64,000 nt of DNA from a virus. Location of the stretch: the IMG/VR virus record IMGVR_UViG_3300028591_000203, positions 1-64,000 of that record; one strand, 5' to 3'. Of this stretch, positions 6,946-39,544 are shown one piece after another. Numbering within the stretch: position 1 is the first letter of the stretch; every line of letters begins with the position of its first letter. Position numbers and translations under genes: made by a program. Under the pieces are notes generated by a model. It had not been told where the DNA came from and did not search any database. It saw only the letters and a list, made by a program, of their open reading frames with translations.

Positions 6946-7848
6946 ATGGATAATCAGGCAAAATTTATTAAGAGAATCATCATCGCATCAGTAGTAGGTC
7001 TTATTGTACTATTTCTTAGTCTATCTTCAATGACTAAGGTAGACTCAGGTTATACTGGTGTAAGAGTATTTATGGGTGCTGTGAAGGAGGAAACTTTTGA
7101 TGCAGGTTTCCACCTTAAAGTTCCTTTCTTTGAAAAGGTAGAGAAAGTAAATAACAAGGTGCAGAAGGTAGAAGTATCAGCAGCTTCTACTTCAAAGGAT
7201 CTTCAGAGTGTAAATAGTACATTAGCGATTAACTATCATCTAGCACCTGAGAGTTCTGTATCGATGTATAAAAACATCGGTATGAGTTATGAAGACACAA
7301 TCCTTCAGCCAGCTATCCAGGAAGCAACAAAGTCCGTAATGGCTCAGTATAGAGCTGAAGAGCTTATTCAGAGACGTGGAGAAGTCTCTATCTCTATTAT
7401 GGATGAAATCTCTAAGAAAGTTTCCGATTACGGCATTGTAATCGACGAGTTTAATATCACCAACTTTGGCTTCTCTCAGGCATTTGACGATGCTATTGAG
7501 CAGAAGCTTGTTGCTGAGCAGAATAAAATTAAGGCAGCTACAGAGAATGAGCAGAGAGTAGCTGCTGCAGAAGCTGATGCTGCAGAAGCAAAGGCAAGAG
7601 CTGAAGGTGAAGCTGAATCTGCAAAGATTAAAGCAGATGGTGAAGCCGAGGCATTAAGAATTAAGGCTGAAGGTGAAGCTGCTGCTATTAAGGCAAAGGG
7701 CGAAGCAGAAGCCGATGCAAATAAGAAGATTCAGGAATCTCTTTCTCAGGACGTTCTTACATACAAGCAGATTGAAGCTTGGAATGGTGAATATCCTGAT
7801 GTAATGTCTGGAGATACAGGCAATATTCTTATTGACACCAGAAAGTAA
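6946..7848 (+). CDS. SPFH / band-7 (prohibitin-HflC-like) membrane protein
   Basis: N-terminal TM helix. SPFH core (GVRVFMGAV...QSVNSTLAINYHL...AEELIQRRGEVS). C-terminal Ala/Glu-rich coiled-coil repeats AEGEAE. Codon usage is GC-richer than its neighbours. Confidence 0.8.
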   Translation: MDNQAKFIKRIIIASVVGLIVLFLSLSSMTKVDSGYTGVRVFMGAVKEETFDAGFHLKVPFFEKVEKVNNKVQKVEVSAASTSKDLQSVNSTLAINYHLAPESSVSMYKNIGMSYEDTILQPAIQEATKSVMAQYRAEELIQRRGEVSISIMDEISKKVSDYGIVIDEFNITNFGFSQAFDDAIEQKLVAEQNKIKAATENEQRVAAAEADAAEAKARAEGEAESAKIKADGEAEALRIKAEGEAAAIKAKGEAEADANKKIQESLSQDVLTYKQIEAWNGEYPDVMSGDTGNILIDTRK

Positions 7849-8080: not shown

Positions 8081-8121
8081 AAAAACCCCTTAAGACTTAG
8101 TCTTAAGGGGTATATTTTTTT
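8081..8121. terminator. bidirectional intrinsic terminator
   Basis: A5-ccccttaagact/agtcttaagggg followed by T-run. Confidence 0.8.
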
Positions 8122-8365
8122 ATTTATTTCTCCATACGATTCTACCAGCGGTTAGATCATATGGTGAAATCTCTACTTCTACAGAATCACCTTCAGTAAT
8201 TTGAATGGAATTCATTCTTAACTTACCAGAAATAGTACAAGTAATAATGCTTTCAGTATTATCAATTCGTACCTTAAATTTTGTACCAGGTAAAGTATCT
8301 ACTACTAATCCTGTTACACCAATATGCTCTTCTTTAGGTAATTGATTCTTGTTACATTTTTTCAT
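8120..8365 (-). CDS. infA: translation initiation factor IF-1
   Basis: EEHIGVTGLVVDTLPGTKFKVRIDNTESIITCTISGKLRMNSIQITEGDSVEVEISPYDLTAGRIVWR aligns across its length with E. coli IF1 [67 protein letters not shown]. Confidence 0.85.
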   Translation of the reverse strand: MKKCNKNQLPKEEHIGVTGLVVDTLPGTKFKVRIDNTESIITCTISGKLRMNSIQITEGDSVEVEISPYDLTAGRIVWRNK

Positions 8366-8458
8366 TAGTTATTCTCTCCTATGTAATTAAATTAAATGGC
8401 CTAGCGTGGTACGCATTATCAATTAATTGATACTAAGCGTGCTAGGCACTTTCACGAA

Positions 8459-8971
8459 TTAACCCATGAATGGATTTACATTATTTAAGTATTTGTTGTC
8501 AAAAGAATTTTTATCTAAATGACCAAAATTTCTTTCGTCTGTATTCCATGCATAATAATCTGGCTGATATCTTTCAGGATGTTCATTTACAGTATGATTA
8601 TCAGGCATGATAGGTCTTCCATAAAGATCTTCAGTACGCTTTATTGGATGGTCATCATCAATACATCTTAAATCATGTATTGCACATTCACATTGATCAA
8701 AGTATTCTTCCTTAGATAATCTATGATCTACAACTGGAGGATTAATAAGTATAGAATTTTCACCATTGGAGATAGCTTCAACAATCATATCGAATATTTG
8801 TGCTACTGCTGCATAGTTACATGATTCATAAATACAAATTCCTTCATTTCTAGTAGTACCGATTATCTTATACTTAGGAAGTTCTTCATTAATTTTAATA
8901 CCATATATATCATGGGCAAATCTAGCTTCACGATCATTTCTAATAACAGTAATCATAAAACTACCTCCCAC
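8459..8971 (-). CDS. hypothetical protein
   Basis: ORF track. Cys/His-containing. No family recognised. Confidence 0.4.
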   Translation of the reverse strand: MGGSFMITVIRNDREARFAHDIYGIKINEELPKYKIIGTTRNEGICIYESCNYAAVAQIFDMIVEAISNGENSILINPPVVDHRLSKEEYFDQCECAIHDLRCIDDDHPIKRTEDLYGRPIMPDNHTVNEHPERYQPDYYAWNTDERNFGHLDKNSFDNKYLNNVNPFMG

Positions 8972-8976
8972 TTAAA

Positions 8977-10782
8977 TTAATTTATAATATCATTATCAGT
9001 TAATACAATTCTGTCATTAGCAGAAGCAGTTTTTGGAGAAGTTAAATCAATAACTCTTATAAAATCATTTTCAACTAAAGACTTACTAGAATCATATGTG
9101 TCAGATACCCAAGTACAGAAACCATGAGCATAATTTGCATCTGGAATAGCTACAAAGAATCTATGCATGATAGGAGTTCTTCTCTCAGTATCTTCTTTAG
9201 CATATACCTTTAATTCATAAACATGATTTTCAATAGCTTGCCATGCAAGTTCATCATGTATAAAATCAGAAAGAACTCTTACAACCTGATTTGTAACAGA
9301 GAGATCTTCTACAGTAACGGTATACTCATTTGCAGCACAATTCTGTACATTTACAGAAACTACAAACTTCATATCGACATCAAGATCTCTATTATCAGAA
9401 TCTGGTTCGATTGGTTCTGGTTCATTATTAAAGTCTCTACCAGACTTAGCGAATCTCATATCATATCTACCATTAAGACGAACTGCATTAACAAAATATC
9501 TTACACCATTATCCTGAAGAACAAAAGTTGTCTGAGGGATAGACTTATCAAGTTCATACCAAACACCATCGTAAGTTTCTTCCTTATAATACCAGTTAAA
9601 GTTCTCAACTAACTTATAGAATTTATCAGGAATCATGAAGAAACTCCATTCACCTGCTACATCCATATTAGTCTTAAATACCATGCTATCAAGGATACAA
9701 TCAAGTACATTCTTCTTTACAACAATAGTATCTCTAGGATTCATATTAGAGAAAGTAGAATGGAAATTCTTAGAAATCATTGTTCTAAGAGCATTTGGTG
9801 AAAGCTCTTTGATATTTGATTGAACAGATTCACCCATTGCAAAGCCACCATTACCATAATAGATACAAATTCTATCTCTAAATGGAGGAGGACATGGTGG
9901 GAAGAAAGGTGGAACTGGAGGTTCTGGTGGTAATGGACGAGGACAAGGAGGAGGACAAGGAGGAGGACAAGGAGGACATGGATGATGATCAGGATGGTGG
10001 TGATGATGATGTGGTGGTTGATATGGAGGATCATAAGGTGGACATGGAGGTTCAGGTCTAAAATGATCCTTACGATGTGGAGGATATGGGAATGGATGAC
10101 AATCAGGAATTGGACAAGGAGGAGGACAATTATCCTTTCTAGGCTCAAATCTAATTACGTCACCATCATTCTTTGGAACCTTACTATAATCAATCTCAAT
10201 ATCTGTTTCATTATAAGGTGGATAAGGATTTGGAATTCTAAAAGGCTCTTCAGCATATCTAGGCTCTCTAGTTAAATTTTCAAATACATCATACCAAGGA
10301 TTTTTTCTTGGATCACCAATATATCTTGGATCAATATCACTATCTGGAACATGAGCATCAAACTTGTCATTCTTATAGAACCAAGGCTGATAATGATCAT
10401 AAGGGAATGGTGGGAATGGTCCAGGACAAGGAGGAGGAGGACATGGATGAGGCATTGGAGTATCAGGAATCTTTTCTAAGTCAATATATCTCCAACCTCT
10501 TCTACATAAATAAATAAAGTTATCGAGATAGTTTTGAGCTTTATATAAATCTTTGCTTCTATATGTAGCGAAAGACTGTGTTAGCTCAGAATTAGTATAT
10601 AATACTACATCATAGAACACTTTATCGATAAAACGAGGATCTCTACGAGCAGGTAAGTTATGAACTGCCTTTGGAGGGTTAGGATAAGTTGTTTTTGATA
10701 TCTTAACTCTAGCACCATATACGGTAAAGATACCGACATCATAACGATAACATGTAACACTAAATGGCATCATATATATCAA
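8977..10782 (-). CDS. Cys-Pro-repeat / polyhistidine-rich protein (PCPPPPCPGP, CPPPCPIPDCHP, HHHHHHPDHHPCPPCPPPCPPPCPRP) with globular N- and C-terminal domains
   Basis: Composition read directly from the translation. The central ~250 aa are over 40% Pro with regularly spaced Cys and an H6 run. DNA in this segment is GC-richer (ggaggacaaggagg repeats). Confidence 0.5.
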   Translation of the reverse strand: MIYMMPFSVTCYRYDVGIFTVYGARVKISKTTYPNPPKAVHNLPARRDPRFIDKVFYDVVLYTNSELTQSFATYRSKDLYKAQNYLDNFIYLCRRGWRYIDLEKIPDTPMPHPCPPPPCPGPFPPFPYDHYQPWFYKNDKFDAHVPDSDIDPRYIGDPRKNPWYDVFENLTREPRYAEEPFRIPNPYPPYNETDIEIDYSKVPKNDGDVIRFEPRKDNCPPPCPIPDCHPFPYPPHRKDHFRPEPPCPPYDPPYQPPHHHHHHPDHHPCPPCPPPCPPPCPRPLPPEPPVPPFFPPCPPPFRDRICIYYGNGGFAMGESVQSNIKELSPNALRTMISKNFHSTFSNMNPRDTIVVKKNVLDCILDSMVFKTNMDVAGEWSFFMIPDKFYKLVENFNWYYKEETYDGVWYELDKSIPQTTFVLQDNGVRYFVNAVRLNGRYDMRFAKSGRDFNNEPEPIEPDSDNRDLDVDMKFVVSVNVQNCAANEYTVTVEDLSVTNQVVRVLSDFIHDELAWQAIENHVYELKVYAKEDTERRTPIMHRFFVAIPDANYAHGFCTWVSDTYDSSKSLVENDFIRVIDLTSPKTASANDRIVLTDNDIIN

Positions 10783-10828
10783 TCCTTTCTATAATATTTA
10801 GAATATTTCTATAAATGACTGTTATCTA

Positions 10829-12046
10829 TCATTTAAAATTAGCTCCGATTCTAATTGAAGGAGTTAAAGGCTCGTTCAATTTAGAAGCTTCAAAAGTAGA
10901 ACCTAATTCTTCATTTAAAAGATCTTTAAACATAGATTCAGTAATAAAATCATTTCTTAAAAATGCAATATCTTCTTCTATACCTTCAATATTATAGCTT
11001 TCAAATAGATTTAAAATAGAATTCTTATCTAAAAGCATTATATTTTCCAAAGATTCGTTAACAGGTTGCTGTTCTTGAACATTTTGCTGTGGATTTTGAT
11101 TATTATTTTGCTTTTTATTCTTTTTATCCATAAAGAAGCCTTTTACTTTTTTTCCTACATTAGATATAGCATTTTTTGCTCTTTTAAAAATACCTTGTTT
11201 TTGCTGATTTTGCTGTTGATTTTGATTATTATCATTTGCTGGAGGATTTTGCTGTTGAGTATTATTTGTTTGAGCATTTTGCTGTTGAGTATTATTTGTT
11301 TGAGCATTTTGCTGTTGAGTATTATTTGTTTGAGCATTTTGCTGCTGATTTTGATTTTGATTATTAGCATTTGTTTCATTATTATTTTGTCTTGCAATTC
11401 TATTCTCTGCAGCAGTTGCTAAACGCTTACCTTTGTCAGAATTTGCATCTACTTCATAAGTTTTACCTTTAGCATTGACTCTTTTAATTACTTCTTTTCC
11501 TTCAGGACCATTTTCTCCAGCTTGTTTAGAGCCTAATTGCATACTTTGAGTTTTATTTGTAACTCCATTTTGATCTGCGTATGTAGTAGTCTTTGTAGCA
11601 TTAGCCATTTGGTTATTTGCTTTATTTTGTGATAAAGATATACCTGCTACATTTTTAATAGCACCCATAGTGCCACCGCTAGCTTGAGCCATATTTTTAA
11701 GGTTAGTTCCCATATTTTTAATACCAGTTTGACCACCATTAGCTGTAGCATAGGCATTACCTGCATTATATGCTTTCTTAGCAGCTACGGCTGTTCCTGC
11801 TACTGCAGCACCTGCAGCCAATCCGCCCATTAATTTCTTAAAGAATCCTTCGTTTAATAATAAATTTTGCATATATTCAGTTTTTGTTAAAGGTTCTATA
11901 TCATTAACTTCACAATTTTCTAAATATGCATCATATGATTTTAAAATATAATTTTCGCAAACAGAGATAGTTTTTTGATCAGCTGGATTATCAACATCAC
12001 ACTCGGCTAGTCTAGTTACACATTCTGCCAAAATCTCTAATTTCAT
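10829..12046 (-). CDS. Q/N-repeat plus glycine-zipper protein (NAQTNNTQQQ x4; GGLAAGAAVAGTAVAAKKAY)
   Basis: RBS AAGGAAGGTG is followed by ATG of MKLEIL; the ORF track starts 3 codons earlier. 30-bp tandem repeats at 11220-11345. Ala/Gly zipper segment. Lys-rich middle. Confidence 0.5.
   Translation of the reverse strand: MKLEILAECVTRLAECDVDNPADQKTISVCENYILKSYDAYLENCEVNDIEPLTKTEYMQNLLLNEGFFKKLMGGLAAGAAVAGTAVAAKKAYNAGNAYATANGGQTGIKNMGTNLKNMAQASGGTMGAIKNVAGISLSQNKANNQMANATKTTTYADQNGVTNKTQSMQLGSKQAGENGPEGKEVIKRVNAKGKTYEVDANSDKGKRLATAAENRIARQNNNETNANNQNQNQQQNAQTNNTQQQNAQTNNTQQQNAQTNNTQQQNPPANDNNQNQQQNQQKQGIFKRAKNAISNVGKKVKGFFMDKKNKKQNNNQNPQQNVQEQQPVNESLENIMLLDKNSILNLFESYNIEGIEEDIAFLRNDFITESMFKDLLNEELGSTFEASKLNEPLTPSIRIGANFK
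11215..11345. repeat. 30-bp in-frame tandem repeat (about 4 copies) inside the 10829-12046 CDS
   Basis: ttgctgttgagtattatttgtttgagcatt repeated. Encodes QQQNAQTNNT. Confidence 0.8.
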
Positions 12047-12104
12047 GAAAATCACCTTCCTTTTTTAATAAATAAATTATAAGAGATTGTTAAAATTATA
12101 AAAA

Positions 12105-12150
12105 ATTTCCAGATTATGTTAAAACATAATCTGGAATTATTTTATTTTTT
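12105..12150. terminator. intrinsic terminator between tandem minus-strand genes
   Basis: ccagattatgtt/aacataatctgg hairpin with T-runs on both sides. Confidence 0.6.
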
Positions 12151-13290
12151 AATAGGTTCACCATATTTTTCTAAAGTAGGCATTAATATTCTTTCTAATT
12201 GTAACCTATTCTTACCATCTAAAATACAGCCAGCAGCATATTCATGACCACCGCCACCGTACATTCTAGCAATTCTAGCACAATCGATATCTTCAAGTAC
12301 TCTTCTAAAATTTATACTACCATATTTAAATGATACATTTACAATATATTTAATATTATAACGAATATAAATTTCTTTTCTATTAATAGCTTCTCTAATC
12401 ATATCACAAATTAAAGAAGTATTATCATCACTTCTGATTATAATATATTGGCAATCTGGATGAGGGAAACCATCTTCATCAATATGATCAAGTACTACAG
12501 ACGTCATTAATGCTTTTTGATAATCTCTATTAATTTGATCCATTAATTCTCTTAATATAGTTTTTTCAGTTTTATTGAAATAAAAAGCTAAACCATCTTT
12601 TTGAAGCTGCATTAAAAAGAATTTACTTCTATTCATATGAGAAAATACAAGATTAAGATCCCTTGCAATAATATTATTATTATCTTTCCACTCAAAAGTA
12701 TCCCAATCATGAACATGCTTTAAATAGCTTGAAAGCCATAATTTAACATCTTCAATTTTATCAGCTTCTGCTCCAATAGTTGCCTCTGTCCAAACTCTAG
12801 ATTGATTATTCTTAAAGAAATTAAATAATTGATAACTAGCACAATAAGATAAATCATTATAATATTCAATTTTTGGAAAAAGCTCTTCAACTCTTCCTCT
12901 GAATGTTATTTCACTATCTTCATGATGATCAATAAAGAATATTTTCTTGAATATACTAGATCTACCCTTAGCTGGATCGTTTAATTTAATTGTGAAATCT
13001 CTTAGTGGTTTATAAATATTATCGTAAAAATTTTGTTTTGTAAAATTTAAATCAGTAATAAAAACAAAATCAAATTTTTTTATACCGTCTTCATTATCAA
13101 TATCAATAAAATCTTTAATCTTATAATATTCATCATAACCAATAAATTCTATATCAAATGTAAAATATTTAGAGTTATAAAACTTTCTAAGAGCTAAGGC
13201 ACAACTTACACCATCCAAATCATTATGAGTGAACATTTTTACTCTAACAGTTGTAATATTAGAGATAATCTCTATATCCTTCATAGTCAT
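12142..13290 (-). CDS. DHH/DHHA1-family phosphoesterase (NrnA/RecJ-core-like)
   Basis: N-terminal DHH motifs FTHNDLDGVSCALAL. Further motifs FITD and IDHH. C-terminal DHHA1 GGGGH motif. True start at 13290 (AGGAGG then ATGACTATGAAG) rather than the ORF track's 13368. Confidence 0.75.
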   Translation of the reverse strand: MTMKDIEIISNITTVRVKMFTHNDLDGVSCALALRKFYNSKYFTFDIEFIGYDEYYKIKDFIDIDNEDGIKKFDFVFITDLNFTKQNFYDNIYKPLRDFTIKLNDPAKGRSSIFKKIFFIDHHEDSEITFRGRVEELFPKIEYYNDLSYCASYQLFNFFKNNQSRVWTEATIGAEADKIEDVKLWLSSYLKHVHDWDTFEWKDNNNIIARDLNLVFSHMNRSKFFLMQLQKDGLAFYFNKTEKTILRELMDQINRDYQKALMTSVVLDHIDEDGFPHPDCQYIIIRSDDNTSLICDMIREAINRKEIYIRYNIKYIVNVSFKYGSINFRRVLEDIDCARIARMYGGGGHEYAAGCILDGKNRLQLERILMPTLEKYGEPIKK

Positions 13291-14005
13291 ATCCTCCTGT
13301 ATGATAAAGTTCATTATTAAACTCTCGATCAATTGCAGAAAGAGCTGAAGGCTTATCAAATAAATCAACAGACTTAGATCTATCTACTGGATTCTGAGTT
13401 AATAATTTCAAAATACAATTTTGTTTATCCTCACCCATTTTAATAAATCCATTAGACTCAAAAAATCTTATTTTAGATTCTTCAGCTTTATTAATAACTG
13501 CTTTATTTGCTGAAAGACTCGTTTTTGCCATTTGAAGTAAATCTTTACCAAATCTTAATCCTTGGTATTTTGGATTAATTTCAAAAATAGTAATAATATT
13601 ATGCTCATTTTTACTTTCAACTTCTACTCTAGCAACTTGATTATTAAATTCATCAAAAAATCTATAACCTCTTACTCTAATTCTATATGCTTTTGGAGTA
13701 CCATATTTATCATCATAATAATGATTATAAAAAGTTTCATAACTTTTTCTTGTAAACTCAAGAAGCTCAATAGGTTTCTTAAGATCTTCCATCATAGTTT
13801 TCTTTTTAGCTTTAGCTATTGCTATCTGCTTTGTCATTGGATTTTTAATACCTGCAAATCTACTTTTCTTAACAAATTTAGGCCTAGTTAATGATGGAGC
13901 ATTAACTTGCTGACCATTTTTATGACCTACTAAACCAAATCTAGTCCAAGTTGGATGAGTTGAAGTATAAGTTTTTGGACCACTTCGTTCATTTAAAATT
14001 TTCAT
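13259..14005 (-). CDS. GNAT-family N-acetyltransferase-like protein
   Basis: IFEINPKYQGLRFGKDLL (motif A Q/R-x-x-G-x-G/A) plus FFESNGF. Overlaps the downstream DHH gene by about 30 nt. Confidence 0.45.
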   Translation of the reverse strand: MKILNERSGPKTYTSTHPTWTRFGLVGHKNGQQVNAPSLTRPKFVKKSRFAGIKNPMTKQIAIAKAKKKTMMEDLKKPIELLEFTRKSYETFYNHYYDDKYGTPKAYRIRVRGYRFFDEFNNQVARVEVESKNEHNIITIFEINPKYQGLRFGKDLLQMAKTSLSANKAVINKAEESKIRFFESNGFIKMGEDKQNCILKLLTQNPVDRSKSVDLFDKPSALSAIDREFNNELYHTGGYDYEGYRDYL

Positions 14006-14140: not shown

Positions 14141-14818
14141 ATGAAGGTTATGACTATGAAACAATTCTTACAGAATCCATCTGGAAGCTATTCTGCAAGT
14201 TTTGCAAGAAGAGATCTCATAATTGCTAATCTAGAAGATCGTTTTGCTAAACTTTATCAAAAAAGAAAGCAAGATTTTAAAATAAAAGTTTTTAGAGGAT
14301 CAAATAAAAATGATTTCTTTTTCTATATTCAAGTACCAAGTGAAAAATATGATAAGATTGTATATGATGTAGTAATACAATTTACACCATTAAATATATC
14401 AGCAATGTCCGCTCCAAATATAGATAATTATGGTGTAAAAGTATTTAGTAATAGTTTAAATTTTACATTTACATACTGTTATTGGTATAACCAAGATGGA
14501 ATTGTTATATCTCAGTTAAAAGACAAATTTTCTGGAAAAGCACTTACTGATAAACCAGTAGTTAAAAATAATGAAGGTATTTATGGTTTTGAAAAGTCAG
14601 TTTATTTCGCAATGCTTTTTATTAAATATAATGAACTTAATAAAAAAGCAAATATACTTAAAGTATTGGATAATAATATGACAATTGCTAAATTGAAACC
14701 ATCTATTAAAAGTGCTAATTCAAAGATTATTGAATATAATCTTACTAAAAAAGCAAATGGAGATGAAAATAAAAAAGCTAAGAAAAAAGGATTATCCAAT
14801 CAACCATTTAAGCTTTAA
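14141..14818 (+). CDS. hypothetical protein
   Basis: ORF track. RBS AAAGGAG. TTTAAATTTAAAT motif upstream. Confidence 0.4.
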   Translation: MKVMTMKQFLQNPSGSYSASFARRDLIIANLEDRFAKLYQKRKQDFKIKVFRGSNKNDFFFYIQVPSEKYDKIVYDVVIQFTPLNISAMSAPNIDNYGVKVFSNSLNFTFTYCYWYNQDGIVISQLKDKFSGKALTDKPVVKNNEGIYGFEKSVYFAMLFIKYNELNKKANILKVLDNNMTIAKLKPSIKSANSKIIEYNLTKKANGDENKKAKKKGLSNQPFKL

Positions 14819-22497: not shown

Positions 22498-24594
22498 ATG
22501 AGTGCAAATTTCAGAACATATGTAAACGAAATGCAGTCTCACATTGACGACATGGTGAAGGACGGTTTTCTCTATAGTCTGGATATTGAGCCAGATTATG
22601 TTTGGGAAAAGTATCTGGATAATTACCCTTCTGGAAGTAATGACATCTTCAGAAAGAGACGAGAGTTCGATTGCTCTTGTTGTCGAAGCTTCGTAAAGAA
22701 GTTTGGCAATGTTGTATCTCTTAAGGGAGGTAAGTATACTACAATTTGGGATTTTGAGGCTGAAGAGCCTTTCAATTCTGTTAACAAGCTCATGTCAGAT
22801 ATGCTTAAGGGTCTGATGATTAAAGACATCTATGTTCCCGACAAGAGACAGACTCTTGTAGGAACAGTTTATACCGTTGAGCTGTTGGAAGATTCCTCTA
22901 CCAGAAGATGGAATCATTTCAACTACAACACTGACAAATATCTTATTAAGTTCAATGATAAGTTCAGAGTAATGCCGTCTGAACTTAAGTCTGAAGTTAC
23001 AGGTCGTATCAGAGATGATAAGGCTGTATTCAAGAGATCTCTTGATGAAATCTCTATGGATGCTCTTCAGACAGTTCTTGAACTGATCGCTGCAGGTAGT
23101 ATCTATCGTGGCGATGAGTGGAAGAATAACCTTCAGGTTTTCAAGACTATTAAGAAGGATTATGATTCTCTCACTAGCGAATATGACAAAGACCTGTTCG
23201 CTTGGGAGCAGGCTGCAAATGTTTCCCCTGCGGTAGTACGAATTAAGAACCATTCAATGGGTAAGCTCCTTACAGATATTACTGATGGGATTGATCTTGA
23301 CCGTGCTGTAAAGGCATGGGAAGATATGGTGGCTGGTCCTAACTATAAGAGACCAAAGCCTCTCTTCACAAAGAAGATGCTGGAGGATGCTAAAAATAAG
23401 CTTGCAGAAATGAACTATCTCGATAGTCTTAAGAGAAGATATGCAGTTCTTGACGATATCTCTGTAAACGATATTCTTTTCTGTGACAGAAATGCTGCAA
23501 AGAGAATTAAGGGTACAGGTGACATTTTCGATGAAATGGCTTCTTCTATTCCAGTGAATCCTAAGAGTTTCTCTAAGGTAGAGGAAGTAAATATTGATAC
23601 ATTCGTATCAAGTATCCTTCCAACTGCAAAGTCTATTGAATTATTCCTCGACAATAGACTTACAAAGAATCTTGTAAGTCTTATTGCACCTGAGATTCCT
23701 GGTAGTAAGTCTATGTTCAAGTGGAATAATCCTTTCTCTTGGGCTTACACTGGCAACATTACAGATTCCAATATTAAGGAAAATGTAAAGAATGCTGGTG
23801 GTAACGTGACTGGAGATCTGAGATTCAGCATTCAGTGGAATGATGAGAATCAGTGGGATCAGGATGATCTCGATGCACATTGCATTGAGAGATACAGTGG
23901 AAGAAAGAAATATGAGATTTATTATGGCAATAGATCAAACAGTTCTCCTAATGGTGGTAGACTTGATGTAGATATCATTCATCCTACTAAGGGTGTTGCT
24001 GCTGTAGAGAACATTTTCTATAGCACTAAAGATACTATCAAGGACGGAACTACATTCCAGTTCTTCGTACATCAGTTTACTAACAGAGGAGGAAAGACTG
24101 GATTCAAGGCTGAGATTGAATTCAATGGTCAGCTTTATCAGTTCGAATATAGAGGAAATATTCCTGATGGAGAAAACATTCAGGTTGCTGAAGTAACTTA
24201 TAAGAATGGAGAGTTCTCTATCAAGGAAAAGCTTCCTTCTACTATGAGTTCTAAGGATCTGTGGGGTCTTACCTCTATGCAGTTCCATCCTGTTACAGTT
24301 ATTATGAATTCTCCTAACTTCTGGGAAGGTTCTTCAATGACTGGTAACAAGCATTGGTTCTTCATGCTTGATGGAATGGTTAACGAGGAGAATCCTAATG
24401 GATTTTATAACGAATTCCTTGTTCCTGAACTTGATAAGTATCGTCATGTTACTGAAGCACTTGGTGAAAAGCTGAGTGTTGTAAGTGCAGACGATCAGCT
24501 GAGTGGTGTTGGATTCTCTAGCACTATCAGAAATAATGTCATCCTTAAGGTGACAACAAACAACACAACAAGAACTCTTAAGGTGACTTTCTAA
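22498..24594 (+). CDS. large hypothetical protein (698 aa; CSCC cluster; beta-rich C-terminus), GC-rich island gene
   Basis: ORF track. RBS AGGAGGA. No catalytic motif recognised. Confidence 0.45.
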   Translation: MSANFRTYVNEMQSHIDDMVKDGFLYSLDIEPDYVWEKYLDNYPSGSNDIFRKRREFDCSCCRSFVKKFGNVVSLKGGKYTTIWDFEAEEPFNSVNKLMSDMLKGLMIKDIYVPDKRQTLVGTVYTVELLEDSSTRRWNHFNYNTDKYLIKFNDKFRVMPSELKSEVTGRIRDDKAVFKRSLDEISMDALQTVLELIAAGSIYRGDEWKNNLQVFKTIKKDYDSLTSEYDKDLFAWEQAANVSPAVVRIKNHSMGKLLTDITDGIDLDRAVKAWEDMVAGPNYKRPKPLFTKKMLEDAKNKLAEMNYLDSLKRRYAVLDDISVNDILFCDRNAAKRIKGTGDIFDEMASSIPVNPKSFSKVEEVNIDTFVSSILPTAKSIELFLDNRLTKNLVSLIAPEIPGSKSMFKWNNPFSWAYTGNITDSNIKENVKNAGGNVTGDLRFSIQWNDENQWDQDDLDAHCIERYSGRKKYEIYYGNRSNSSPNGGRLDVDIIHPTKGVAAVENIFYSTKDTIKDGTTFQFFVHQFTNRGGKTGFKAEIEFNGQLYQFEYRGNIPDGENIQVAEVTYKNGEFSIKEKLPSTMSSKDLWGLTSMQFHPVTVIMNSPNFWEGSSMTGNKHWFFMLDGMVNEENPNGFYNEFLVPELDKYRHVTEALGEKLSVVSADDQLSGVGFSSTIRNNVILKVTTNNTTRTLKVTF

Positions 24595-37453: not shown

Positions 37454-39544
37454 TTAAATCTTAATAATATTTGTTGGAATTAAGTTTTCATTTACCTTTG
37501 GAGTCTGAATATTCAAACAATCCAAAATAATAGTTCCTGCATTAAGATGATCATAAACCATTTTTTCAGAATCTAAGAACGGTCTAATAAATAATGGAAT
37601 TTCATTAAGAGTCTTTGGAAGACTAATAACATTTAAAATTCCACCCTTTACAAGAGCATGTTCTACAGTATCTCCATTAATAGTATAAGATACATTAAAT
37701 GCTTCTTCAAGTTTTTCTAAGAAACCATTTAATTCATCTTTATCATATTCAATTTTATTTTTATTACAATAGTCAATAATCACTTCACGATTATTTTCCA
37801 TATTATCTTCAATAATTACTTTTACTACATTTACATTAGTTGGAAGAGTTATTTCATTCTCAGAATAAAGTACATTCCAAGTTAAAATACCTCTTAACTG
37901 CATAACATTTACTGGATTTGCATAACCTTCAATCTCATTTGCTCTTGAAGGAATTGTAAATGTAGTTTCTCCTTTATTAAAGGAGTCTTTGATAATATCA
38001 ACTAAGTTAAAATATTTTCTAATAATATTACTATAGTTGATATCTTTTGCAAGAATGATATCATCTTTAAGTAAGTTAGTGAAATACTCACTTACAAATT
38101 TATTTGTATTAGACTTCTTAATAGCAAGTCCTTTAAGATCAATTTTCTGTTTTTCAATAAGATTTCCTTCTTGCATTAAGACAGATGATGCATATGACTT
38201 TTTATTTTTAGTCATTAGTAGTCTTGATAGCATAAACTCATTTTTCATATTAATGAGAGGTCTATATTTCTCCTCAACAAAATGAAGTTTACCAAATTTA
38301 AGATATGCTTCGTTAATTACCTTTGTAATTAGATAAGTAATACAATTAACTGAAGCAACCTTTAATTCTTTACTATTATCTACACTTTTAATATTCTTTT
38401 TAAAGAATTCATATGCTGGCTCAAGATGTAAGAAATTTGAATCTGTATCTACGACTAAGACACTCTTACGTTTACCCTTCTTACAGAAATTAAATTTGTT
38501 AATATCGATATGATTATAGAACACCCAGTCTTTAACATAGAACCAGACACCTTCAAGAACTGCCTTATTGTATTCCCATTCTTTATTATAAAGCTCTTCA
38601 AGCTTTTTGTTACCCATATCTTCTTTACTTAGATTATTTGGACCATTTGGATTAAGGAATGGAATATCTCTACTGAATATCTTTTCAAATTCTTTATAAA
38701 TTTCAGAATCTTTTAAAAATTTATAAAGTCTATTTTTATAATATACTTTATTAATTTCAGTTTGAGATAGAGTATCAATAAAGTTAATAATTGCTTTATG
38801 CTCACTCAAATCCATATGAATTGGTCTCAAATCATCTTTAGTATAAAAATGCTCTTCAAGAAATCCAATTAACTCTTCTTTAGAAACTTCAAAATCAATT
38901 TCAGACTCATATTCTTCTTCAATAATATTAGTGATATAAGTAATAACATCACTAGCAGTATAGAAGTGAACATTTTCCATCAAGAACTTTTCAAATGTAT
39001 CAATTGCAGTCATGATGATTTCTTCACCACTTGCAGTAACAGACTCACCACAATCAAGATCTCTAAAGATTGAACCACCTGCAGTTAACACACCGTAATA
39101 TGAATTCATGATTGCAGTCTTATAAGTTAACTGAATACAATCAAACATCTTCATAAGAGTTGGATCAAGATCATTGATATGCTCAAACTTTTGTTTCTTA
39201 GCTTTCTTTCTTCGTTTACCTGAAGCATCAAGCATTTTACTTTCCAATGCTTCTTTCTTAGCATGCTGTGTATATGCTGTTCCATATTTAGTTAAAATAT
39301 GTCCTTTTTTATGCATGAAGCTTTCAAGTTTATTTAGTGGAACATCATTAACATCTCTACTAACTTGATCGAAGAATTTAATATCAAATTCTAAATTTGA
39401 TGATTGTGTGTCTCTTTCTTCGATAATCTTATCCAATTTGGCTTCAACTTCTGAAAATTCCATATCTGGAAAAGATCTTTGTAGAAAATTTAACATTTTC
39501 TGTTTGTATTCTTCTAGTTTGTTTGTTGACATCATATAAATCAA
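37454..39544 (-). CDS. family-B DNA polymerase, C-terminal piece (motifs B and C plus thumb) of a split polB
   Basis: KTAIMNSYYGVL is motif B K-x3-NS-x-YG. VLVVDTDS is motif C DTDS. No exonuclease motifs or motif A are present in this ORF. Confidence 0.55.
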   Translation of the reverse strand: MIYMMSTNKLEEYKQKMLNFLQRSFPDMEFSEVEAKLDKIIEERDTQSSNLEFDIKFFDQVSRDVNDVPLNKLESFMHKKGHILTKYGTAYTQHAKKEALESKMLDASGKRRKKAKKQKFEHINDLDPTLMKMFDCIQLTYKTAIMNSYYGVLTAGGSIFRDLDCGESVTASGEEIIMTAIDTFEKFLMENVHFYTASDVITYITNIIEEEYESEIDFEVSKEELIGFLEEHFYTKDDLRPIHMDLSEHKAIINFIDTLSQTEINKVYYKNRLYKFLKDSEIYKEFEKIFSRDIPFLNPNGPNNLSKEDMGNKKLEELYNKEWEYNKAVLEGVWFYVKDWVFYNHIDINKFNFCKKGKRKSVLVVDTDSNFLHLEPAYEFFKKNIKSVDNSKELKVASVNCITYLITKVINEAYLKFGKLHFVEEKYRPLINMKNEFMLSRLLMTKNKKSYASSVLMQEGNLIEKQKIDLKGLAIKKSNTNKFVSEYFTNLLKDDIILAKDINYSNIIRKYFNLVDIIKDSFNKGETTFTIPSRANEIEGYANPVNVMQLRGILTWNVLYSENEITLPTNVNVVKVIIEDNMENNREVIIDYCNKNKIEYDKDELNGFLEKLEEAFNVSYTINGDTVEHALVKGGILNVISLPKTLNEIPLFIRPFLDSEKMVYDHLNAGTIILDCLNIQTPKVNENLIPTNIIKI

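Follow-up and report, generated by a model that had tools for sequence, protein, structure and literature searches.

The window, that is, the whole 64,000-nucleotide stretch of viral DNA that was analysed, carries an open reading frame at 8977-10782 on the minus strand, which was found as listed and whose translation contains all three peptides quoted by the initial annotation. TTG at 10782 is the mechanical start; ATG at 10773 is the likely one, since homologues begin MMPFSV or MTHPF and an AAAGGA ribosome-binding site precedes this ATG. The coding sequence (8977-10773, minus strand, stop at 8977-8979) then specifies a 598-aa protein, referred to here as the tether protein. The Pro/Cys/His-rich character that had drawn attention to it is genuine, both HHHHHH and (CPPP)n being present in the 598-aa frame.

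Judging from sequence comparison, the tether gene is real and under selection. Its homologues form 17 full-length clusters with 27-93% identity, and intact ORFs occur in ENA, JGI and Logan assemblies (P0005 on six contigs, P0008 on 10). The reading frame is kept in nine near-identical strain variants, in which every length difference is in frame. The initial annotation had warned of an artefact or of a frame broken in replicate assemblies; the ORF proved intact in many independent ones. An assembly or sequencing error, or a non-coding low-complexity stretch misread as an ORF, might be suspected from the error-proneness of low-complexity repeats and from the absence of the exact window protein from a 15-billion-sequence collection, but is refuted by the homologue clusters, the in-frame length differences and the conservation of flanking domains, synteny and promoter.

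Immediately downstream, in all six loci, lies a partner gene (8459-8956, minus strand) of 165 aa from ATG 8956. In the partner protein a conserved N-domain of 75 aa gives way, after PP, to a variable tail, which is His/Pro/Cys-rich in a divergent subclade. Its N-domain matched that of the tether protein weakly in hhalign (46% probability, 30% with larger alignments), and BLASTP between the two N-domains gave no match. An otubain-like peptidase assignment for the partner was rejected, the Pfam match (E 0.007) being below the cut-off. The partner N-domain HMM also gave a 27-residue match to AR9 gp279 (E 5.6e-4 among 925 ORFs) that is too short to rely on; gp279 is a hypothetical protein encoded within the tail/structural module of AR9 and is noted as a lead only. 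Upstream, in the same transcription unit, is a Q/N-rich low-complexity gene (10829-12046, minus strand) with its own late-type motif at 12080-12091. The borders of the unit were predicted by a terminator scan, with an intrinsic terminator after the DHH gene (12107-12136, minus strand) upstream and another after the IF-1-like gene (8120-8365) downstream (8085-8111, minus strand).

By its sequence the phage, an uncultivated jumbo phage, is a distant relative of AR9/PBS1. One of its nvRNAP subunits shares 31% identity with AR9 gp225, the gp226-gp225-primase synteny is kept, with a gene at 14141-14818 (phrog_20045) occupying the gp226 position just upstream of the gp225 homologue, and PHROG RNAP subunits are also present.

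Layout and strain variation of the tether

The low-complexity tether occupies residues 106-296 (191 residues) and is bipartite. Block 1 (residues 106-128, MPHPCPPPPCPGPFPPFPY; 10390-10458, minus strand) is separated from block 2 (residues 221-296; 9886-10113, minus strand) by a less repetitive and better conserved island (residues 129-220; 10114-10389, minus strand) which bears DPRYIxDPRKNPWYDVF and DYxKxPKxDGE and is modelled by AlphaFold2 with low confidence. Block 2 consists of the conserved RPEPPCPPYDPPY, a hypervariable stretch with the His run and (CPPP)n, and then PPCPPPF. The hexahistidine codons (CAT/CAC; 9994-10011, minus strand) lie within a trinucleotide repeat array at 9981-10011, while (CPPP)n is encoded by a 12-nt tandem repeat at 9935-9976 (GGAGGAGGACAA on the plus strand, the gene being on the minus strand; 3.5 copies, 96% matches). 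Repeated CPxCP/CPPPCP motifs within the Pro-rich segment are present in HPCPPCPPPCPPPCPRP. The central Pro/Cys region described by the initial annotation is therefore real, but it extends over about 190 residues rather than about 250 and in two blocks; likewise a CPPPC repeat exists, but the regular spacing of its cysteines stems from the strain-variable 12-nt repeat.

In the tether, Pro accounts for 34% of the residues, Cys for 5.8% and His for 7.3%; for the remaining 83 genes called in the window the figures are 2.75%, 1.33% and 1.49% (binomial P = 1e-51 for the Pro count). A stretch of 30 residues with at least 11 Pro and at least 2 Cys/His occurs in none of the window's other six-frame ORFs of 60 aa or more. 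Because of the Pro, Cys and His codons, the DNA here is locally GC-rich, as had been noticed (43-45% against about 27-33% around it), and has a GC skew of +0.48 on the plus strand. The statement that CPPPCP is foreign to phage proteins was too strong, as 36 IMG/VR contigs, among them contigs of other huge phages and of giant viruses, contain DNA encoding (CPPP)2C; the (CPPP)n proteins of these contigs are not homologous to the tether family and carry no annotated function. A general stylistic preference of the clade for Pro/Cys linkers was also considered and rejected, since in the sequence available only the tether gene, and in one subclade the partner, carries them.

Across the nine near-identical strain variants the segment after PPYDPPYQPP ranges from 25 to 43 aa, with a run of 3-10 His and 2-5 Cys in the variable segment, and the variation falls on the in-frame 3-nt and 12-nt tandem repeats. 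HPCPPCP is retained in all nine. Among the wider homologues, the best-kept tether Cys is conserved in no more than 11 of 18 sequences, and the tether of P0008 (57% identical, on a 265-kb contig) has no Cys, 14% Pro and 1% His. Loss of Pro and Cys in P0008 through stronger AT bias is ruled out, as loci of lower GC (22-24%) keep a Pro/Cys-rich tether.

It could be argued from these observations that the Pro/Cys/His composition serves no purpose except to provide length, and that it is a side effect of CCT/TGT/CAT microsatellites prone to slippage, in a spacer that tolerates nearly any extended sequence. The 12-nt repeat and trinucleotide array, copy numbers that differ among strains more than 90% identical, and the lack of any universal tether Cys are all as such a process would leave them. 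Pro-rich tethers (32% Pro) nevertheless persist in loci of 22-24% GC, and GC-rich Pro and Cys codons have thus been kept against mutational bias; HPCPPCP, EPPCPPYDPPY and PPCPPPF are moreover conserved across many lineages. The same composition has also arisen at non-homologous sites, namely the N-domain loop of P0013/14, the second linker of P0017 and the partner tails of the divergent subclade, and under the genetic code CCT cannot become TGT by a single substitution. Taken with the retention of HPCPPCP, this recurrence and codon distance suggest that Cys and His are a selected accessory, and the by-product explanation is regarded as somewhat unlikely, while still carrying real weight.

Folded domains and family status

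AlphaFold2 assigned pLDDT values of 70-90 to residues 1-28, 50-105, 300-453 and 468-578, and values below 50 to residues 111-142, 166-267 and other short segments; the C-terminal half modelled alone reached pLDDT 84. The models suggest a small N-domain, a disordered region at about 106-298 and two C-terminal beta-sandwiches, in agreement with the globular ends and the modular build around a Pro-rich spacer proposed at the outset. The N-terminal small alpha/beta domain (residues 1-105; 10459-10773, minus strand) is basic, with pI 9.4 compared with 5.6 for the whole protein, and contains a variable disordered loop at 29-49. The predicted core beta-sandwich (residues 297-447; 9433-9885, minus strand) carries YYGNGGFAMGESV, AGEWSFFMIPD, FNWYY and QDNGVRYFVNAVRLNGRY and is weakly Ig (I-set)-like. 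Of the folded parts, the C-terminal beta-sandwich (residues 468-598; 8980-9372, minus strand) varies most. Mean pairwise identity is 61% in the core, which is the most conserved part, 55% in the N-domain and 34% in the C-domain, and the C-domain is replaced in P0010, P0011 and P0013-17. A conserved N-domain and core combined with a variable C-domain is a pattern typical of anchor-plus-binder proteins. No signal peptide or transmembrane segment was recognised in the tether protein (maximum KD19 0.91), as would be expected if it is assembled in the cytoplasm or released through lysis.

The similarity of the modelled C-terminal sandwiches to known folds appears generic (Ig-like, pilin-adhesin or CBM). 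A beta-sandwich of about 90-100 residues, as in Ig I-set and Ig_3, is predicted, and the strand C Trp of the Ig signature is present in the core (FNWYY); the position of the strand F Y-x-C motif reads RYFV or RYYV, with no Cys. Pfam Ig I-set and Ig_3 (PF07679 and PF13927) gave no match in the tether protein even at E <= 1, and the Ig link of the core is indirect, running through P0024 (E 1.6e-4) and a weak hhalign match of 56% probability.

From its sequence the family is an ORFan, with 12 representatives among 1.84 billion proteins. A core-domain profile run against the 1.84e9 representatives recovered its own family and one Ig-repeat protein only. For the tether protein there was no significant match in Pfam, PHROGs, NCBIfam or PADLOC (best E 0.05), no tblastn match in 50,697 phage records, no match with E < 0.06 between per-domain HMMs and all six-frame AR9 ORFs, and nothing useful in 185,579 species genomes. 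PDB sequence profiles gave no match with E up to 1 for the C-terminal half or the N-domain and nothing useful for the partner, and Foldseek against PDB and BFVD returned nothing useful, the tail-fibre matches in BFVD all having E > 0.03.

Late-type promoter and putative virion-surface role

In AR9 the late promoter consensus is AACA-N6-TA/G, ending at the transcription start (PMC5312081). An AR9-type late-promoter-like motif, AACAGTCATTTA (AACA-N6-TA; 10812-10823, minus strand), is located 50 nt ahead of the ATG, and transcription would accordingly be expected to begin with the final A of the motif, some 39 nt before this codon. Five of the six loci, L001, L008, L009 and L010 among them, retain the motif at -50 to -59 despite diverged flanks. 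The motif specifies no more than six bases. In the zone 36-65 nt before gene starts it was observed 11 times, where 1.8-3.0 occurrences would be expected, and none of 1000 shuffles reached this count. The same motif stands before the operon with a PHROG 'virion structural protein'. Host sigma-70-type promoters showed no enrichment (40 found, 38.9 expected). Ahead of the nvRNAP and DNA polymerase genes, but not of the tether gene, there is an early-type TATATATTAT core. Late expression of the tether gene is therefore probable. The AR9/PBS1 late genes, which are transcribed by nvRNAP, share the AACA-N6-TA motif with this phage, which also has homologues of the nvRNAP subunit and gp226; AR9 itself has no homologue of the tether protein, nor clearly of the partner, and late transcription here is predicted from the motif.

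The explanation that we tentatively prefer, as a possible one, is that of a late-expressed, virion-surface accessory protein of decoration, fibre or adhesin type. The conserved basic N-domain would dock the protein onto the particle, possibly together with the small protein encoded downstream, whose N-terminal secondary-structure pattern is similar. The tether of some 190 residues, largely unfolded or in polyproline-II form, would act as an extended spacer holding out the conserved Ig-like beta-sandwich and the second, fast-evolving one, and the latter would bind a ligand on the host surface or in the environment. The place on the virion, the anchoring, the binding of a ligand and any part played by metal or redox chemistry are all inferred. 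The initial annotation had itself suggested a virion spacer or decoration; this agrees with the late promoter, the Ig-like or adhesin-like sandwiches and the variable C-terminus, while its tail-fibre version found no homology, there being no PHROG match to tail-fibre or receptor-binding families and the gene lying outside a tail/baseplate module.

Several observations count against a virion protein. The tether protein lacks homology to virion, tail-fibre or decoration families; its neighbours (GNAT, DHH, IF-1-like, SbcC and nvRNAP genes) include no structural module; and lateness does not imply structure, as the AR9 late class includes non-structural genes too (PMC5312081) and a helicase gene here also bears the late-type motif. 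The tether protein might thus be a late non-virion protein, either an assembly scaffold or chaperone or a binder of the host envelope or cell wall in late infection or lysis, with the tether as a mere flexible linker. No catalytic or chaperone domain was detected in it, however, it has no signal peptide or transmembrane segment with which to reach the envelope before lysis, and a variable C-domain beside a conserved N-domain suits a displayed binder better, so that a non-virion function seems unlikely, though it retains an appreciable share of the probability.

If the virion-surface reading is right, the family would be a new group of ORFan accessory proteins from uncultivated and little-studied relatives of the AR9/PBS1 jumbo phages. 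Its strain-polymorphic tether length would offer a testable case of phages tuning the reach, stiffness and metal or pH response of an appendage. The AR9 early/late promoter grammar proves usable in distant metagenomic relatives and helps to assign temporal classes to their many genes of unknown function. Until a relative is brought into culture, the practical value stays modest.

Cysteines and histidines of the tether, and related systems

Metal binding or disulfide cross-linking, as the initial annotation had suggested, cannot be the essential function of the family, since it has no universal tether Cys, P0008 has none at all and the His run varies from 1 to 9 among homologues. A primary role in metal handling, whether binding, storage or sensing of Zn, Ni or Cu in the manner of Hpn, metallothionein or histidine-proline-rich glycoprotein, is accordingly very improbable. 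His runs of up to nine (P0007), a tether with 26% His (P0015), HPHPHP repeats (P0010 and P0012) and the presence of CPPC/CxxC motifs would suit it. Proteins of the metallothionein or Hpn kind, however, would show Cys above 15%, CxC/CxxC clusters or conserved ligands; here Cys accounts for just 5.8% of the tether, CxC clusters are absent, and no ligand position is conserved, one lineage having no Cys and 1% His. In addition, the conserved sequence lies mostly in the N-domain and the two beta-sandwiches, and no matches to metal-binding families were found.

Within the preferred virion-surface reading, the tether Cys and His would instead be accessory, carried on in-frame microsatellites with units of 12 and 3 nt, which lengthen and shorten from strain to strain. 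Their most plausible role would be in bridging or stiffening neighbouring chains, through metal ions (at CPPC, HxCxxC and His runs) or disulfides, and they may make the tether pH-sensitive near pH 6. A more specific and improbable version is that the tether forms a tunable hinge on the jumbo-phage particle, which metal, oxidation or a pH near 6 would switch between a floppy and a bundled rigid state, the microsatellites setting the number of CPPC/CPPPC motifs and His. CxxC bridging by metal, as in a zinc hook, could then take place between chains or with the partner protein. Such a switch, if true, would alter how far the Ig-like binding domains extend or their valency, and would represent a contingency-locus-like mechanism acting on virion mechanics and not on receptor specificity.

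Several known systems bear comparison. The predicted beta-sandwiches resemble the CnaB/Ig-like or CBM modules of Gram-positive pilus adhesins and related proteins (SpaC, RrgA, Cpa, CBM41). Histidine-proline-rich glycoprotein (HRG) is a eukaryotic secreted protein with cystatin-like domains and a His-rich region flanked by Pro-rich regions; it is not homologous to the tether protein, in which metal binding is putative, but has HPHP/HHPH-type repeats beside Cys-containing Pro-rich segments between folded domains, and by analogy Zn2+ and pH sensing as in HRG is plausible. The human IgG3 hinge, with its repeated CPRCP-EPKSCDTPPP, forms a polyproline double helix with inter-chain disulfides. Both it and the tether have CPxCP/CPPPCP repeats in a Pro-rich spacer between Ig-like parts, and in both the repeat number is polymorphic; the tether protein, however, is made in the bacterial cytoplasm, its Cys positions are not conserved in the family and its origin is independent, and a parallel dimer with disulfides, as in the hinge, would be putative in it.

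[quoted passage not shown] Neither pb10 nor Hoc matches the tether protein in sequence, or significantly in fold (PHROG, tblastn, BFVD). The anchor is N-terminal and alpha/beta in the tether protein, alpha-helical in pb10 and C-terminal in Hoc, and neither has a counterpart of the Pro/Cys/His tether of about 190 residues. What they have in common is a small particle-binding domain, putative in the tether protein, joined to one or more solvent-exposed Ig-like domains, together with variable binder domains and accessory status, both predicted here; Hoc (pI about 4-5) is also acidic overall, as is the tether protein. If right, the present reading would add a long Cys/His polyproline tether to the 'anchor plus Ig-like display' plan known from Hoc and pb10.

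Composition and domain layout of the tether protein

The annotated reading frame at 8977-10782 (minus strand) is present, and every peptide quoted from it was found in the translation. Its listed TTG start is mechanical; since an AAAGGA ribosome-binding site precedes the ATG at 10773 and homologues start MMPFSV or MTHPF, a length of 598 aa is the most likely. The unusual centre was also recovered, although at residues 106-296 (191 aa) it is smaller than the ~250 residues claimed. Within this tether, Pro makes up 34% of the residues, Cys 5.8%, His 7.3% and Tyr 6.3%; across the window's remaining 83 called genes, Pro, Cys and His account for 2.75%, 1.33% and 1.49% (binomial P = 1e-51 for the Pro count). 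No comparable segment occurs in any other six-frame ORF of the window. Two Pro/Cys/His blocks (106-128 and 221-296) make the tether bipartite, and the island that parts them, which contains the motifs DPRYIxDPRKNPWYDVF and DYxKxPKxDGE, is better conserved. The locally raised GC reported initially was confirmed (43-45% against ~27-33% nearby) and, like the strong GC skew, results from CCN, TGY and CAY codons.

AlphaFold2, run with an 18-sequence alignment, predicted a small alpha/beta N-domain (1-105, loop 29-49 disordered), a middle with pLDDT <50 across most of 111-298, and a C-terminal half of two beta-sandwich domains (~300-447 and 468-598), which modelled by itself reached a pLDDT of 84. 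Mean pairwise identity in the family is 55% for the N-domain, 61% for the core sandwich and 34% for the C-terminal sandwich, this last domain being replaced in homologue clusters P0010, P0011 and P0013-17; indel fractions of the tether blocks are 31-43%. The pI is 5.6 for the whole protein, 9.4 (basic) for the N-domain and 4.7 (acidic) for the C-domain; neither a signal peptide nor a TM segment was found.

No significant match was obtained in Pfam, PHROG, NCBIfam or PADLOC (best, PADLOC, E 0.05), and none in phage GenBank records or PDB sequences. The family was found in none of 185,579 species genomes and occurs on three IMG/VR contigs; judged by these searches, it is an ORFan. A core-domain profile retrieved only 12 proteins from 1.84 billion representatives, 11 of them from the family itself and the twelfth a bacterial surface protein of I-set/Ig_3 repeats (E 1.6e-4, five stretches). 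In profile-profile comparison, FNWYYKE...W.EL...TF.IQDNGVRYFVNA aligned with the strand C-to-F region of that protein's repeats (56% probability, E 1e-4). Given these matches, the C-terminal half is read from the model as a pair of generic Ig-like/CBM-like sandwiches.

Strain variation and the possible role of Cys and His

Among 5.8 billion protein clusters, 17 full-length homologue clusters (27-93% identity) were found, drawn from ENA, JGI and Logan assemblies, and the region is thus not an artefact. Certain homologues sit on 265-kb and 306-kb contigs; clusters P0005 and P0008 are represented on 6 and 10 contigs, respectively. The closest cluster holds eight sequences of 581-607 aa, which differ from the window protein mainly in the segment after PPYDPPYQPP (25-43 residues, 3-10 His, 2-5 Cys, in frame every time). 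Here, a 12-nt tandem repeat at 9935-9976 (3.5 copies, 96% matches) encodes (CPPP)n, and an adjoining trinucleotide array at 9981-10011 encodes the His run. The frame disruption across assemblies that the initial annotation named as grounds for refutation was thus not seen. The segment is an in-frame microsatellite differing between strains. The Pro/Cys/His tether is real, conserved and strain-polymorphic, and the protein that bears it is a three-domain ORFan of AR9-like jumbo phages.

The same annotation proposed metal binding or disulfide cross-linking. Each tether Cys position is kept in at most 11 of the 18 sequences, P0008 (57% identical, 265-kb genome) lacks Cys in its tether and has just 14% Pro there, and the His share of the tether ranges from 1% to 26%. 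Across the family, these figures exclude a metal site or disulfide that is strictly required; such a role is possible as an accessory only. A purely neutral Pro/Cys/His composition is opposed by retention of the Pro/Cys-rich tether in loci with just 22-24% GC, by like composition at non-homologous sites (the N-domain loop of P0013/14, the second linker of P0017 and the tails of the downstream partner proteins) and by the persistence of HPCPPCP, EPPCPPYDPPY and PPCPPPF across many lineages. These three points, with the lack of a universal Cys, lead to a reading of the tether as a spacer with selected, dispensable Cys and His. It would be extended and polyproline-type, its repeat number free to vary, and its accessory Cys and His would most plausibly serve chain-to-chain bridging (metal or disulfide) and pH sensitivity.

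Probable late transcription and the neighbouring genes

The window is jumbo phage DNA encoding split multisubunit RNA polymerases, primase, SbcC, DNA polymerase, a phiKZ/AR9-type head protease and a virion structural protein. Its non-virion RNA polymerase (nvRNAP) subunit shares 31% identity with AR9/PBS1 gp225, and the AR9 order gp226-gp225-primase is kept. AR9 early promoters read AAATATATATTAT-N6-G and late promoters AACA-N6-TA/G, and the late class is not made up purely of structural genes (PMC5312081). AACAGTCATTTA is located 50 nt upstream of the tether gene's ATG, and four of five homologous loci, amid diverged flanks, carry the same motif at -50 to -59, with spacer bases partly identical; in two of these four a terminator hairpin directly precedes it. 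Start codons in the window have the motif 36-65 nt upstream more often than expected (11 cases, against 1.8 by the background rate and 3.0 by shuffling; 0 of 1000 shuffles reach 11), and it also precedes the operon with the PHROG 'virion structural protein'. The early-type core TATATATTAT is found upstream of the nvRNAP subunit, DNA polymerase and SPFH genes and not of the tether gene, and host-type sigma-70 promoters show no enrichment in the window. AR9 promoter grammar seems conserved in this distant relative, and from sequence only we infer that the tether gene is late and transcribed by the phage nvRNAP. The form (A/T)TATATATTAT-N5-8-G precedes these early-type genes and others, for example upstream of 14875, 40135, 37454-39535 (minus strand), 6946, 22060 and 43709; the DNA polymerase gene carries both motif types, as do 'continuously expressed' AR9 genes.

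Predicted minus-strand terminators at 12136-12107 (upstream) and 8111-8085 (downstream) delimit a unit of a Q/N-rich gene, the tether gene, its partner and an IF-1-like gene. The first (10829-12046, minus strand) is syntenic in loci L001, L004 and L010 and has a separate AACA-N6-TA motif at 12080-12091. Its product, a low-complexity protein of 405 aa with no family match, comprises a hydrophobic Gly/Ala-rich stretch and a Q/N-rich region encoded by a 30-nt tandem repeat (11230-11348, 4 copies, 94% matches). The last (8120-8365, minus strand) encodes an IF-1 homologue (Pfam eIF-1a, E 2e-17); just upstream, at ~8396-8447, is a long imperfect inverted repeat, GCCTAGC...GCTAGGC, without a T-run.

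The partner (8459-8956, minus strand) belongs to a family of 158-195-aa genes located within ~5-30 nt after the tether gene in all six loci examined, the most divergent included. Its 25 clusters, none of them annotated, were found only on contigs that also carry the tether gene. A highly conserved 75-residue N-domain is followed by PP and a variable tail, itself rich in His/Pro/Cys in a divergent subclade. The N-domains of the partner and of the tether protein share a predicted beta-beta-beta-beta-alpha-beta pattern; as their profile comparison reached just 30-46% probability, common origin or co-assembly is only a lead. The partner N-domain profile also matched 27 residues (PIYSIIQVLNNEGEIIYNSNEYKKIY) of AR9 gp279 (NC_031039.1 242108-244660; E 5.6e-4 among 925 AR9 ORFs), a hypothetical protein within the tail/virion structural module; the match is too short to trust, but no other link to a structural region was found.

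Beyond the unit, mechanical ORFs for DHH phosphoesterase-like (12142-13368, minus strand) and GNAT-like (13259-14005, minus strand) proteins overlap by ~110 nt; homologous loci have a 26-nt overlap, so the true DHH start is probably further downstream. The GNAT gene also has an upstream AACA-N6-TA motif. The SPFH/Band-7 gene (6946-7848, plus strand) has a GC-rich 3' part (43-45%) encoding Ala/Glu/Lys-rich repeats, AEAKARAEGEAESAKIKADGEAEALRIKAEGEAAAIKAKGEAEA; AR9 likewise encodes an SPFH lipoprotein, gp180. A late-type motif precedes the gene (22498-24594, plus strand) for a 698-aa protein of phrog_1735 (unknown function), matched in 489 phage records. Proteins from Clostridioides phage pCD1602_4 and from Bacillus cereus phages share 48-49% identity with it. 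These matches, with AR9/Staphylococcus/Listeria phage affinities, hint at a Bacillota host.

Comparison with other (CPPP)n proteins and with decoration proteins

The likeness of the tether to the IgG3 hinge, and to the His/Pro-rich region of HRG, is one of composition only. The initial annotation placed the closest analogies outside phage proteins. (CPPP)n is not unique to the tether family, CPPPCPPPC-coding DNA being present in 36 IMG/VR contigs, some of them giant-virus MAGs. Huge low-GC phage contigs (199-473 kb) encode a protein of 283-288 aa, predicted to be a coiled coil, whose C-terminal (CPPP)3-4 tail ends in CPPPCPPPCPPPCP. Carriers include IMG/VR contigs L023, L030, L036 and L045 (199-473 kb, GC 28-31%), giant-virus contigs L013 and L026, and L029. 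Giant viruses encode Cys/Pro-rich (CPPP)n proteins of 204-227 aa, and one 167-aa viral protein is nearly all (CPPP)2-3CHCGPPP repeats. None of these other viral (CPPP)n proteins is homologous to the tether family or has a functional annotation.

Late expression of the tether gene and association of its product with the virion are both probable, and the spacer/decoration role suggested initially is the best-supported reading. T5 pb10 and T4 Hoc are acidic decoration proteins with a small anchor domain, a spacer and exposed variable Ig-like domains (PMC5292684, PMC10385173), an overall plan that the tether protein would share; an Ig-like-domain protein is also listed among AR9's own virion proteins. 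As no homology to any of these three was found, the tether protein may be said to work like pb10 and Hoc while being a member of neither family.
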